This document shows positions 17,901 to 23,900 of a stretch of 64,000 bases of DNA, in pieces. The stretch is from assembly GCF_003334815.1 (NCBI RefSeq), contig NZ_QOWO01000019.1, one strand, 5' to 3'. Within the stretch, counting starts at the first letter, position 1. Every line of letters starts with the position of its first letter. This DNA is from Escherichia coli (GTDB taxonomy: Bacteria > Pseudomonadota > Gammaproteobacteria > Enterobacterales > Enterobacteriaceae). Made by a program: the position numbers.

Positions 17901-20900
17901 CAGCGGCTTGATTTTCATCTGTCGGGTAGCCTTCCATCTCTGGGGTGATGAACAAACGATATCCGCTGTAATCCGCTTTTCTTACCATCGTTACGGTCAA
18001 CATGGCTGCGCCAGAGAGACGGGAGAGAACATAGGTGCCATTGGTTGTGGCGACATTTTCCACCGCAAAGAACGGCGCGAAGGAGCTGCCTTTACGACCA
18101 TAATCCTGATCGGGAGCAAACCATACCGCTTCACCTTTCTTCAGTGCACCGACAATGCCGCGCAGATTATTTCTGCCGATCATCGCTTTGTTAGAGCGCA
18201 TGCGCCCACGGGTCTGCACCCATTCCATCAGCTGATTATTATGTGGACGATAGGTAGCCATCATTGGTTGGCACAGTCCCATCACGCGGCCGCCCAGTTC
18301 CAGCGACATAAAATGGACGCCGACAACCATTACGCCGCGATTTTGCATTTGTGCGCGTTTAAGGTTATCCAACCCTTCAACATCAAACCATTTACGTACG
18401 CGACTGTCGGGCCAGAACCATGCCATGCCGGTTTCTACCAGCGCCATGCCGAGTGAACGAAAGTTTTCGGCAATCATCTTCTCGCGTTCTTCCGCAGAAT
18501 GCTGCGGGAAACAAAGTTCCAGGTTTTTACGGGCGATAGATTCACGACGTTTCAGGAATGGTCGCGCCATTGCGCCAATACGCGTGCCGAGAAAGCAGAG
18601 AACAGGATAAGGAAGCTGTACCCAAAGCCAGAGTACACCAAGCCCAAACCATGTGAGCCAGTAGCGAGGATGTAGAAACTCGCGGGAAAATTTGCATTGT
18701 GGAAACATAGTTACCTTCTGTAGATACGAATTGTTGTATCGCAGAAGATTCCATGTCGACAGCGGTACACTCAATTGGTTGGGCCATCATGTACGACAAT
18801 GGTTCCTGTAAAGAGTGTAAAGACTAGTCAGGACATAACCACGAGGAGCATGAATGCGGTATCTGTACTTTATCACTCGCTGACTGCTTTCAGCTACTGA
18901 TTATTAATCGTGCAAAGTAAATATTTTTCCGTACACAACAGTCTTGCATTTAACATGCTGTTTTCATTGATGCTTAGCAAAAATTGCCAGAGGTTAAGGA
19001 TTGTCTTACTATTAAAGTGACTGAAGTTACAGGTTTTTTAGCGCGGCAGGAGGTTGAGCTATGATTAATTTATGGATGTTTCTCGCCCTGTGTATTGTCT
19101 GCGTAAGCGGCTACATCGGTCAGGTACTGAACGTGGTATCGGCGGTCTCTTCTTTCTTCGGCATGGTGATCCTCGCTGCACTCATTTATTACTTCACCAT
19201 GTGGTTAACTGGCGGTAATGAACTAGTGACGGGGATATTTATGTTTCTTGCCCCGGCTTGTGGCTTGATGATTCGCTTTATGGTGGGGTATGGCAGGCGG
19301 TAGTGGGTCAGGATGGCTCATTTGGGCAGGTGTTCACATCAGCATCAGACATGATTGTTCACCTGCCATGTGAAAGACGCTATCGCACAGGATGAATAAG
19401 ATAATTCGCCTTTGTCGGAAAAGGGGGCGGCATTTCTTCTGTGAGGTTTAATGGTGGCGCATCTTCTCTCATCTTAAACAAAATCGCCTGTGATGGCTGA
19501 AGTTTTGTAGAGTGTGTGGTCGTCATCGCTGATGTTTTTTCAGTCTCTTTATAGCTCCTCTCACTTCCACCACCCGAAATGGAAAATGCAAAAACATTGC
19601 ATGCCATAATAGAGACCAATAAAAATAAGCTGAAAAGTATTAAGTTTACTTTCATAGAAAGTTATCCTGAAAATGGTTCACTGAGAACCTACGATGTTAT
19701 GGCTGTATTTACATTTAATTAATCAGTATTTACATCGATATAATAAATGACATCTCTTTGTGGTATATAAGAATAGTTCTCTGCGACAGGAAGCATATTC
19801 CTACAATTGTAAGACTAAAATACTTCTTGCGATAATAACTACAACTGTAAGATAACCCTTTCAAAATGACCGTTGCTCTCTGATTTCTCATTTCATGCTC
19901 ACCCAATATGATGGCGGCGTTTTCTAAAACTGTTAAAGAATGAGGTAAGTATGAAACGTTTAATTATGGCCACGATGGTCACAGCAATTCTGGCATCTTC
20001 AACTGTATGGGCTGCTGATAATGCTCCGGTAGCGGCACAACAGCAAACTCAGCAAGTTCAGCAAACCCAGAAAACGGCAGCGGCAGCAGAGCGTATCTCT
20101 GAACAAGGTTTATATGCGATGCGTGACGTGCAGGTAGCGCGCCTGGCTCTGTTTCATGGCGATCCAGAAAAGGCAAAAGAACTGACCAATGAAGCTTCCG
20201 CTTTGCTGTCAGATGACAGTACCGAATGGGCAAAGTTCGCTAAGCCAGGTAAAAAGACCAATCTCAATGATGACCAATATATTGTCATTAATGCATCTGT
20301 CGGAATTTCTGAGAGTTATGTAGCAACTCCCGAAAAAGAAGCCGCGATAAAAATTGCCAATGAAAAAATGGCGAAAGGGGATAAAAAGGGCGCAATGGAA
20401 GAGCTTCGCCTGGCCGGTGTTGGCGTAATGGAAAACCAATATCTGATGCCACTTAAACAGACTCGTAATGCACTTGCTGATGCGCAGAAACTGCTTGATA
20501 AAAAGCAATACTACGAGGCAAACCTGGCGCTTAAAGGTGCGGAAGATGGAATCATCGTCGATAGCGAAGCACTGTTTGTGAACTAATGCTGACAGGCAGT
20601 ATATTGAGGTAAAGGATTTAACTCCCTCCAGCCGACAATTTTTTATGACCACAATACGACAGGTTGTGGTCATAAAATTATTTGGCGCTCGCGGTGCTAT
20701 AAACTCGCATTTTATATTCCTCAAAGTAAACCGCAATAATCCCGTGTCATCACAAATCATTTATTATGTTATGTTTTATGGTACGCTTTAAAAAGCGTAA
20801 TCATACCCTTGCTTGTAAATCACCGGCGCTTCTTACAGTTGTAAGAATAACATCACAAATGTCGCGACTCTCTCTGATTACCACGAATCAATATTTATCA

Positions 20901-23900
20901 TATTCTTCTTTTCGTCCTCACTACTTACCATGCAGAAAGGAATTGGAAGTGGCGATGAAATGATTTTCAGCACTTGATACAGGATTTTAAAAATATCGAG
21001 TGCAGCTACGACGATATTTTGCGGGTTATTTATAGAAGATATTACGCCTTAAATAAACGCTAAATTAACACATATTTAATTAACTAATAGGTATTGCTAT
21101 GTCAACTCCACTTCAAGGAATTAAAGTTCTCGATTTCACCGGTGTGCAATCTGGCCCATCTTGTACTCAAATGCTGGCCTGGTTTGGCGCTGACGTTATT
21201 AAAATTGAACGTCCCGGCGTTGGTGACGTAACGCGTCACCAGCTGCGAGATATTCCTGATATCGATGCGCTTTACTTCACCATGCTTAACAGTAACAAAC
21301 GTTCTATTGAGTTAAATACCAAAACAGCGGAAGGCAAAGAGGTAATGGAAAAGCTGATCCGCGAAGCTGATATCTTAGTCGAGAACTTTCATCCAGGGGC
21401 CATTGATCACATGGGCTTCACCTGGGAGCATATTCAAGAAATCAATCCACGTCTGATTTTTGGTTCGATCAAAGGGTTTGATGAGTGTTCGCCTTATGTG
21501 AATGTAAAAGCCTATGAAAACGTTGCTCAGGCAGCGGGTGGCGCGGCATCCACTACGGGTTTTTGGGATGGTCCGCCGCTGGTAAGCGCTGCAGCGTTGG
21601 GTGACAGCAACACCGGAATGCATTTGCTGATCGGTTTACTTGCTGCTTTGCTGCATCGCGAAAAAACGGGGCGTGGGCAACGAGTCACCATGTCAATGCA
21701 GGATGCCGTATTGAACCTTTGCCGCGTGAAATTACGTGACCAGCAGCGTCTCGATAAATTGGGTTATCTGGAAGAATACCCGCAGTATCCGAATGGTACA
21801 TTTGGTGATGCAGTTCCCCGCGGTGGTAATGCAGGTGGTGGCGGTCAGCCTGGCTGGATCCTGAAATGTAAAGGCTGGGAAACCGATCCTAACGCCTATA
21901 TTTATTTCACTATTCAGGAGCAAAACTGGGAAAACACCTGTAAAGCCATCGGCAAACTAGAATGGATTACCGATCCGGCATACAGTACAGCCCATGCACG
22001 ACAGCCACATATTTTCGATATTTTTGCTGAAATCGAAAAATACACTGTCACTATTGATAAACATGAAGCGGTGGCCTATTTGACTCAGTTTGATATTCCT
22101 TGTGCACCGGTTTTAAGTATGAAAGAAATTTCACTTGATCCCTCTTTGCGCCAAAGTGGCAGTGTTGTTGAAGTGGAACAACCGTTGCGTGGAAAATATC
22201 TGACCGTTGGTTGTCCAATGAAATTCTCTGCCTTTACGCCGGATATTAAAGCTGCGCCGCTATTAGGTGAACATACCGCTGCTGTATTGCAGGAGCTGGG
22301 TTATAGCGACGATGAAATTGCTGCAATGAAGCAAAACCACGCCATCTGATATTAACGGGGGCTTCTGGCTCCCAATTTATAAAAATTTCGAGGTTATTAA
22401 TCATGTCAGATCAACTTCAAATGACAGATGGTATGCATATCATCGTTGAAGCATTAAAACAGAATAATATTGACACTATTTATGGTGTTGTAGGTATTCC
22501 TGTGACGGATATGGCACGCCATGCCCAGGCGGAAGGCATTCGTTATATTGGTTTTCGTCATGAGCAGTCGGCAGGCTATGCCGCTGCGGCAAGCGGTTTT
22601 CTTACCCAAAAACCGGGGATCTGCCTGACAGTTTCTGCGCCAGGATTCCTCAATGGTTTGACCGCATTGGCCAACGCAACGGTAAATGGTTTTCCGATGA
22701 TCATGATTAGCGGCTCCAGCGACCGCGCGATCGTCGACCTACAGCAAGGTGATTATGAAGAGCTGGACCAAATGAATGCGGCAAAACCGTATGCCAAAGC
22801 AGCATTTCGCGTTAATCAGCCGCAGGATCTTGGCATTGCATTGGCACGCGCTATCCGGGTCTCTGTATCGGGTCGCCCTGGCGGAGTTTATCTTGATTTG
22901 CCAGCAAATGTCCTGGCCGCGACGATGGAAAAAGACGAAGCGTTAACCACGATTGTTAAAGTTGAAAATCCGTCGCCAGCATTATTGCCATGCCCGAAGT
23001 CAGTCACTAGCGCAATTTCGCTTTTAGCAAAAGCTGAACGGCCATTAATTATCCTTGGCAAAGGCGCGGCGTATTCACAAGCTGATGAACAGCTTCGTGA
23101 ATTTATTGAAAGTGCTCAGATTCCATTCCTGCCAATGTCTATGGCGAAAGGGATCCTTGAAGATACGCATCCACTTTCTGCGGCAGCTGCGCGTTCGTTT
23201 GCCCTGGCAAATGCTGACGTTGTCATGCTTGTTGGTGCACGACTGAATTGGTTATTGGCACACGGTAAAAAAGGATGGGCGGCAGATACACAGTTTATTC
23301 AACTGGATATTGAACCGCAGGAAATTGACAGCAACCGCCCCATTGCTGTGCCAGTCGTTGGTGATATTGCATCCAGTATGCAAGGTATGCTGGCAGAACT
23401 GAAACAAAACACATTTACGACTCCACTGGTATGGCGCGATATTTTAAATATCCACAAGCAGCAAAATGCACAAAAAATGCATGAAAAATTAAGTACAGAT
23501 ACTCAACCATTAAATTACTTTAATGCATTAAGTGCTGTGCGCGACGTATTGCGCGAGAACCAGGATATTTATTTAGTTAATGAAGGTGCAAATACCCTGG
23601 ATAATGCACGAAATATTATTGATATGTATAAACCACGTCGTCGTCTGGATTGTGGTACCTGGGGTGTCATGGGCATCGGTATGGGCTATGCCATCGGTGC
23701 TAGCGTGACTTCTGGTTCTCCGGTTGTCGCCATTGAAGGTGATAGTGCTTTTGGTTTCAGTGGGATGGAAATTGAAACGATTTGTCGATATAACCTGCCG
23801 GTGACGATCGTTATTTTTAATAATGGCGGCATCTACAGAGGAGACGGTGTTGATCTCAGTGGCGCTGGTGCACCATCACCAACGGATCTGTTGCACCATG

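Follow-up and report, generated by a model that had tools for sequence, protein, structure and literature searches.

A yfdX 3' stem-loop and a predicted EvgA promoter of frc in the yfdX–frc spacer of Escherichia coli

The yfdX–frc locus

The genes yfdX and frc (formyl-CoA transferase) of Escherichia coli are separated by a spacer of 512 bp, which was analyzed here within a 64,000-nucleotide stretch of contig NZ_QOWO01000019.1 (assembly GCF_003334815.1), hereafter called the window. Sequence comparisons and published data make it likely that this spacer is a regulatory region of two units, in which a stem-loop at the 3' end of yfdX is followed by a separate promoter for frc that is controlled by the activator EvgA. 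The source DNA is K-12-like, and its spacer is 100% identical to that of several K-12-type chromosomes. The + strand of the window corresponds to the minus strand of K-12, and the coordinate in NC_000913.3 is 2,514,353 minus the window coordinate. On the 3' side of frc follow oxc, yfdV, and yfdE, and then evgS and evgA in convergent orientation. The features of the locus that are needed first are the following:

19951–20586, + strand: yfdX coding sequence (211 aa, YfdX family)
20587–21098: yfdX–frc spacer
20641–20677, + strand: stem-loop in the 3' untranslated region of yfdX, with arms TTTTATGACCACAA and TTGTGGTCATAAAA and a 9-nt loop; putative terminator or 3'-end protective hairpin
20678–20829, no strand assigned: variable AT-rich stretch with 35–36% G+C and C>G on the + strand
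20766–20963, + strand: open reading frame (ORF) of 65 aa, intact with ATG in K-12 and spanning the EvgA box; not a gene
20830–20847, no strand assigned: EvgA box, a perfect 18-bp palindrome, TTCTTACAGTTGTAAGAA, with 0 mismatches to TTCYTACA-N2-TGTARGAA
21099–22349, + strand: frc, the first gene of the frc-oxc-yfdV-yfdE group

The length and borders of the spacer confirm those given in a first-pass annotation of the window, whose coordinates were right to within a few bases throughout. The spacer is found in 5,411 of 5,426 complete E. coli genomes at 90–100% identity. No annotated feature lies within it in the RefSeq E. coli genomes among those listed, and a search of positions 19400–21400 with the Rfam 15 covariance models (E up to 1) gave no real match, the two chance-level hits being to a eukaryotic microRNA and a small nucleolar RNA with scores far under the gathering scores.

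Beyond E. coli, a genome search based on Frc returned Moellerella and Providencia as the nearest enterobacterial relatives; their long regions upstream of frc do not resemble the E. coli spacer and lack an EvgA box. A search based on YfdX found the same island in Yersinia alsatica (L096, L097, and L107; YfdX 84% identical) and in two further loci, L098 and L100, whose YfdX proteins are 82 and 68% identical, respectively. In Y. alsatica, L098, and L100, yfdX is followed by a spacer of 528–784 nt (784 nt in L100) and then by frc-oxc-yfdV. Variation inside E. coli was determined from 11 aligned sequences, including the strongly divergent strain SCPM-O-B-8794 (L003), with these fractions of variable sites:

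yfdX coding sequence: 0.10
Hairpin: 0.14
20678–20829: 0.31
EvgA box: 0.06
20848–20960: 0.11
20961–21060: 0.36

In the diverged spacer, the conserved blocks are the stem of the hairpin, the EvgA box, about 80 bp past the box, and the final 40 nt ahead of the frc start codon.

Insertion sequences (IS) reach into this region in two strains. In E. coli 730V1 (L092 1371–3544), the gap from yfdX to frc contains IS5 and IS903B, the latter of which interrupts the yfdX 3' hairpin, with the match stopping at the equivalent of position 20663. In E. coli 1218KP (L088 2248–3062), IS1 precedes frc by 62 nt, and yfdX and the EvgA promoter are replaced by foreign genes.

A predicted EvgA-dependent promoter of frc

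The EvgA box in the spacer is located 252–269 nt upstream of the frc ATG and bears out the earlier report of a perfect palindrome about 250 nt upstream of this gene. Matches to the EvgA pattern with up to three mismatches occur four times in the window, where 0.48 are expected, and the box, like the hairpin described below, is a non-chance occurrence. The other three matches are the box at evgA/emrK and the two boxes of yfdX:

19798–19815, + strand: yfdX EvgA box 1, TTCCTACAATTGTAAGAC, 1 mismatch
19836–19853, + strand: yfdX EvgA box 2, TAACTACAACTGTAAGAT, 3 mismatches

Box 1 of yfdX is invariant in the divergent L003, and a promoter-like sequence, TTCTCA-16-TATGAT, is found downstream of the yfdX boxes at 19885–19912. 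At frc, all E. coli loci compared match the EvgA pattern exactly, the lone change among the 11 E. coli sequences falling into the central N2. The half-sites are also kept in the relatives, where the box reads TTCTTACACGCGTAAGAA (L096), TTCTTACGCGTGTAAGAA (L098), and TTCTGACAGAGGTAAGAA (L100).

The box is followed by a conserved block in which the candidate promoter elements of frc are found:

20848–20912, + strand: conserved promoter core, containing TAACATCACAAATGTCGCGA, CTCTCTGATT (20870–20879), TTACCA, and TATTCT
20878–20883, + strand: −35-like TTACCA of frc, with a 17-nt spacer to the −10
20901–20906, + strand: −10-like TATTCT of frc, starting 54 nt after the box
20913–21098, + strand: predicted 5' leader of frc, about 186 nt, from an inferred start

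In a five-way alignment, TAACATCACAAAT.TCGCGA and CTCTGATTAC are conserved in this block, and the motifs T-A-T-T-x-T at 20901–20906 and GATTAC at 20876–20881 are invariant across five lineages. Two alternative −10 hexamers, TATCAT (20896–20901) and CATATT (20899–20904), were discarded, as L096 and L098 do not retain them.

The distance between box and −10 was compared in seven EvgA-box regions, namely those of yfdX box 2, frc, safA, ydeP, and yegR and both sides of the evgA/emrK box. Six of the seven contain a −10-like hexamer of the form TAnnnT 53/54 nt after the box:

yfdX: TATGAT
frc: TATTCT
safA: TATATT
ydeP: TAATTT
yegR: TATTAT
emrK: TAAATT

This count was reached by none of 5,000 shuffles and every other offset pair yields at most four of seven, with the caveat that safA and ydeP are alike, as are yfdX and frc, so that the promoters are not fully independent. 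With this layout, transcription of frc is predicted to start near 20913, which would place the center of the box near −74.5. Of the predicted leader, the start-proximal part and the last 40 nt before the ATG are conserved and the middle is variable. Its folding is no stabler than that of shuffled sequences (z = −0.63); we do not claim a leader structure, as a local 10-bp helix at 20970–21003 is only loosely kept in L003. The box of ydeP likewise lies about 250 nt from its own ATG and thus offers a precedent for a long frc leader.

The promoters of frc and yfdX also share the 10-mer CTCTCTGATT, which occurs at 19876–19885 and 20870–20879, in each case at exactly +23 to +32 from the preceding box (yfdX box 2 and the frc box, respectively). 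It abuts and overlaps the upstream side of the predicted −35 and is nearly invariant in the relatives. Possible explanations are a second contact of the activator or a common origin of both promoters. With the EvgA promoters of ydeP, safA-ydeO, yfdX, yegR, and emrK, that of frc has in common the palindrome, the 53/54-nt spacing, and induction by active EvgS/EvgA. It differs from them in that its box is the only perfect palindrome in the set and is located inside an often-drawn operon, and the 10-mer is common to frc and yfdX only; nothing essential sets it apart.

An EvgA-core-like sequence, ACAAATGT, is found at 20855–20862, 20 bp downstream of the center of the frc box, and safA and ydeP contain CAGTACTG and CACAATTG at an equal offset (L094 near 4055–4064 and 6714–6723). 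Secondary activator sites are a feature of BvgA-type promoters, and by analogy these three sequences may be secondary EvgA sites.

Dependence of frc on EvgA and binding of EvgA at frc are taken from the literature. According to a figure legend that cites Masuda and Church (2003), EvgA-bound inverted repeats induce yfdX and yfdWUVE separately (PMC3720670, Figure 2), and a review lists frc among the promoters bound by EvgA (PMC8147483). As cited in the same two articles, the EvgA promoters of acid resistance are defined by the 18-bp box (Masuda and Church, 2003; Itou et al., 2009). Moreover, frc belongs to the EvgA iModulon (b2371–b2376), and an RpoD site from genomic SELEX (systematic evolution of ligands by exponential enrichment) is listed between frc and yfdX, with an HNS mark and with the genes in separate operons (PMC3946193). 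Among the genes of the array, frc responds most strongly to a constitutive evgS mutation and exceeds the upstream yfdX, the log2 changes being 8.37 for frc, 6.97 for yfdX, 6.59 for oxc, 6.16 for yfdV, and 3.57 for yfdE (PMC4283999 supplement). After overproduction of EvgA, however, yfdX was up far more than yfdWUVE (PMC4759549). Quantitatively these two data sets point in opposite directions, and both indicate that the levels of yfdX and frc are uncoupled. The conserved block, the −10 spacing, and the literature thus support the proposal of the first-pass annotation that frc is an independent EvgA unit. A separate EvgA-driven frc unit has been in the literature since 2003–2009 and is not new.

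A conserved hairpin at the 3' end of yfdX

The hairpin begins 55 nt past the yfdX stop codon. Its arms (20641–20654 and 20664–20677) are 14 nt long, 100% complementary, and 9 nt apart, so that the perfect 14-bp stem described earlier for 20637–20680 is indeed found within that interval; as RNA, the hairpin has 15 pairs, because U20655.G20663 is added. A 76-nt hairpin segment folds with −26.3 kcal/mol (z = −4.15), which none of 200 shuffles equaled, and perfect hairpins of at least 14 bp occur three times in the window and not once in 100 Markov shuffles. The hairpin is followed by the tail TTATTTGG at 20678–20685 and is flagged by a simple terminator scan. The E. coli U-tract, UUAUUUGG, is modest, with five U in eight positions.

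All 28 stem bases are unchanged in L003, where the flanks of the hairpin are about 20% different. Across approximately 5,400 genomes, about 4,139 contain an exact copy of the K-12 form of a 72-nt segment with the hairpin. The segment occupies a median of one place per genome, and with one copy per genome the hairpin was rejected as a member of a repeated element. The variant G20663A, which converts the closing U.G into U-A, is exact in 396 genomes, and the double change A20648G+T20670C, which converts A-U into G-C, in 257 genomes; A20648G alone or T20670C alone is found in at most one genome each. As the double change probably represents a single lineage, it was counted as one event. The other common variant sampled, C20632T, lies outside the stem, and no stem-breaking variant was seen among the hairpin variants sampled across these genomes. 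Among the relatives, L096 retains the stem ATGACCACAA...TTGTGGTCAT without change; in L098, one arm carries an A-to-G change that gives G.U in the + strand RNA, and L100 has the stem GGCCACAACC-ACGGAAC-GGTTGTGGCC about 65 nt past its yfdX stop codon. The lone varying compensated pair is A-U in four, G-C in three, and G.U in one of the eight distinct aligned sequences.

A strong hairpin is located 30–65 nt past the stop codon in every yfdX homologue examined, whatever gene comes next, including homologues that are followed by a convergent evgS or by unrelated genes. Because of this independence from the next gene, we assign the hairpin to the 3' end of yfdX. With intrinsic terminators of E. coli it shares a stable stem-loop soon after the stop codon and, in E. 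coli, a U-rich tail (five of eight) that passes the simple scan. It differs from them in that the stem is A/U-rich at its base, with four to five G-C among the 15 pairs, and an A-run on the 3' arm separates the G+C core from the U-tract. In addition, the U-tract is not kept in relatives that retain the stem. Termination of yfdX transcripts at the hairpin is plausible and is the weakest part of the interpretation.

The window contains two other perfect hairpins of this kind. One, with a 15-bp stem of AATTATGCCCAATGA and TCATTGGGCATAATT, is located at 47821–47857, 10 nt past an ORF that ends at 47811; it also lacks a U-tract, and GCTCATC comes next. The other has a 17-bp stem flanked by A- and T-runs and is found at 17310–17347, 15 nt past an ORF that ends at 17295, a position that corresponds to the alaC-ypdK interval of the K-12 locus (L001). 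Unlike the yfdX hairpin, it has the appearance of a textbook bidirectional intrinsic terminator.

A two-unit model and its alternatives

In the model that we consider likely, the conserved stem-loop of 14–15 bp about 55 nt past the yfdX stop codon would define the 3' end of the yfdX transcript, either because transcription terminates intrinsically at the UUAUUU that follows or because the stem-loop stops 3' exonucleases once termination has occurred farther downstream. About 150 bp on, phosphorylated EvgA would bind the palindrome at 20830–20847, centered near −74.5, and activate the weak sigma-70 promoter TTACCA-17-TATTCT at 20878–20906. Transcription from near 20913 would then produce an frc-oxc-yfdV(-yfdE) mRNA whose leader measures about 186 nt. 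Thus, yfdX and frc would be co-regulated by one activator through two promoters of the same layout instead of forming one obligatory operon. We infer the exact start of frc and the mechanism and efficiency of termination. A single operon would contain neither a promoter nor a terminator between yfdX and frc; judged by the sequence, the spacer contains candidates for both.

Several observations weigh against this model. The −35 and −10 hexamers of frc match the consensus in only four of six positions each and were missed by a consensus scan. Downstream of the hairpin, the tail reads CUCUCUGC in L096 and L098 and AUGUCCUG, without a U-tract, in L100, and the loss of the U-tract where the stem is kept fits poorly with conservation of a canonical intrinsic terminator. 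The stem shows weak covariation, with 10 of 15 pairs invariant and a score that is matched by 75 of 500 shuffles; the formal test is not significant because most stem pairs are invariant, so that the case for the hairpin rests on conservation and one compensated pair. Under acid stress, yfdX, frc, oxc, and yfdV are up similarly (log2 4.3–4.9), which alone would also fit one operon, and several papers still write "yfdXWUVE operon." Finally, the supplement of Adams et al. (2021; PMC7815308) with Term-seq and transcription start site (TSS) data contains neither a start nor a 3' end in the spacer under non-inducing conditions, in which the locus is silent. Under the same conditions it also contains no start at the predicted sites of safA, ydeP, yegR, emrK, and yfdX, and because the conditions were non-inducing this null result is uninformative.

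The TSS table of that study lists an "internal" start in yfdX at window position ~20051 (NC_000913.3 2494302, minus strand), about 100 nt into the coding sequence and under the non-inducing conditions.

Among the alternatives, the one that survives best concerns only the yfdX unit and is compatible with a separate frc promoter. It holds that Rho ends yfdX transcripts in the untranslated, C-rich, G-poor, and probably H-NS-bound spacer, and that the transcripts are trimmed back to a protective stem-loop. Such 3'-end protective stem-loops, left by Rho-dependent termination and exonuclease trimming, were reportedly described by Dar and Sorek in 2018. The yfdX hairpin resembles them in being conserved without a conserved U-tract and in the long untranslated, AT-rich stretch with C>G that follows it, a likeness that is a functional analogy drawn from sequence features. 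The GC skew of −0.29 and the G+C content of 35% over 20700–20899, the U-tract-free hairpin past an ORF at 47821–47857, and the HNS mark on the spacer in the RpoD SELEX table (PMC3946193) point in the same direction. On the other hand, the E. coli tail UUAUUUGG passes the simple terminator scan, and no data on Rho dependence were found for the yfdX–frc locus. On balance, we regard this explanation as tentative, yet worth serious consideration.

That frc is expressed by read-through from the yfdX promoter in one yfdXWUVE operon, with the hairpin as a processing or stability element and the spacer box as an auxiliary or vestigial site, is unlikely. The wide use of the operon name and the similar acid induction of the four genes would agree with this view. 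A true operon also exists in another lineage, since the Klebsiella-type locus L103 (3625–3747) has a yfdX–frc gap of only 123 nt, with a different hairpin and no EvgA box. However, one operon would leave unexplained why a −35/−10 block has been retained at the distance from the box that is typical of the family, why frc is induced above yfdX in the constitutive evgS mutant, and why the genes should be separated by 512 nt of untranslated RNA with a strong, conserved hairpin. Moreover, the literature that splits yfdX from yfdWUVE and reports EvgA binding at frc contradicts it.

Another possibility is that the hairpin is recognized specifically, for example by a small RNA, an RNase, or an RNA-binding protein, and conditionally couples the two EvgA-driven units. 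If true, it would set the read-through from yfdX into the spacer and frc, or the lifetime of the yfdX mRNA. Its near-identity across genera, the pair that alternates among A-U, G-C, and G.U, and the lost U-tract could exceed what is seen in a generic terminator, and this idea is nonetheless a long shot.

A constitutive sigma-70 promoter of frc at 20711–20740, which would place the EvgA box downstream of the start, is very unlikely. The sequence TTTATA-18-AATAAT at this site, inside the variable stretch 20678–20829, was found by the consensus scan with a match of 9/12, and identical hexamers, which map to the same window positions, are given for frc in PMC3946193. These hexamers, however, represent the best match within a SELEX peak and not a mapped start. 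They lie where the spacer is least conserved, do not persist outside Escherichia, and are lost in L096 and L098 (AATGAA, 6-nt deletion), and an activator box about 100 nt downstream of the start would not activate. Furthermore, no start is found there in the TSS data searched (Adams et al., 2021, non-inducing).

Slightly harder still to sustain is the view that the inverted repeat at 20641–20677 is no RNA structure and serves as a double-stranded DNA operator for a dimeric regulator. The arms ATGACCACAA/TTGTGGTCAT are far more conserved than their flanks, with 10 of 15 pairs invariant, and their 9-bp spacing is the same in K-12, L096, and L098. In L100, however, the arms CCACAA...TTGTGG are 11 nt apart, with extra bases that extend the stem, and the one-sided A-to-G change in L098 breaks the symmetry of the DNA yet gives G.U in the + strand RNA. 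Arms of 14 bp would also be long for an operator, unrelated yfdX homologues carry different hairpins at the same place, and there is no second copy of the sequence in the genome (median of one place per genome).

That the 65-aa ORF encodes a small protein is extremely improbable: it is intact with ATG in K-12, but a stop codon leaves only 34 aa of it in E. coli S12 and CH4794-type strains, a 1-nt deletion shifts its frame in L003, and neither L096 nor L098 has a counterpart. None of the listed E. coli genomes has it annotated, and its 5' part lies upstream of the predicted frc start. A coordinate-prefix search of an acid-stress ribosome profiling (Ribo-seq) supplement (PMC10746267) retrieved no feature in the yfdX–frc spacer. 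The suspicion that this ORF, which spans the EvgA box, is non-coding was thus well founded, as its frame is broken or absent in the relatives.

Mobility of the island

In Y. alsatica (L107 9538–20615), the complete island yfdX-frc-oxc-yfdV-yfdE-evgS-evgA directly adjoins an IS1 fragment and has a phage-type integrase on its upstream side. This arrangement suggests that the core of the regulon was transferred horizontally together with its regulator, and since the island carries evgS and evgA, the regulator travels with both promoter modules. The Klebsiella-type locus L103 has the same order of yfdX, frc, and oxc, whereas the spacer of the E. coli-type island measures approximately 512–530 nt (784 in L100). 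The short gap without an EvgA box in L103 argues that only the E. coli-type island possesses the inserted internal promoter module.

In a Buttiauxella locus (L101 3667–3928), the spacer between yfdX and evgS is made up of approximately 50-nt units in tandem (...GTTCGTTTTGTGTCGGATGTCGC...CCCGACCTAC...) that resemble a repetitive extragenic palindromic (REP)-type repeat array.

Implications

The analysis adds to the known EvgA system a predicted core promoter and start of frc, the constant spacing of approximately 53/54 nt between box and −10, a yfdX 3' hairpin that is conserved without its U-tract, and an island that moves between genera with evgSA and both promoter modules. These additions leave the understanding of the EvgA system unchanged, and the spacer is an ordinary, already-explained regulatory region. 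The presence of two EvgA units matters for annotation, as the locus is still often written "yfdXWUVE operon," and it affects how operon-level expression, promoter reporters, and the polarity of knock-outs are read in these oxalate-linked genes of acid tolerance.

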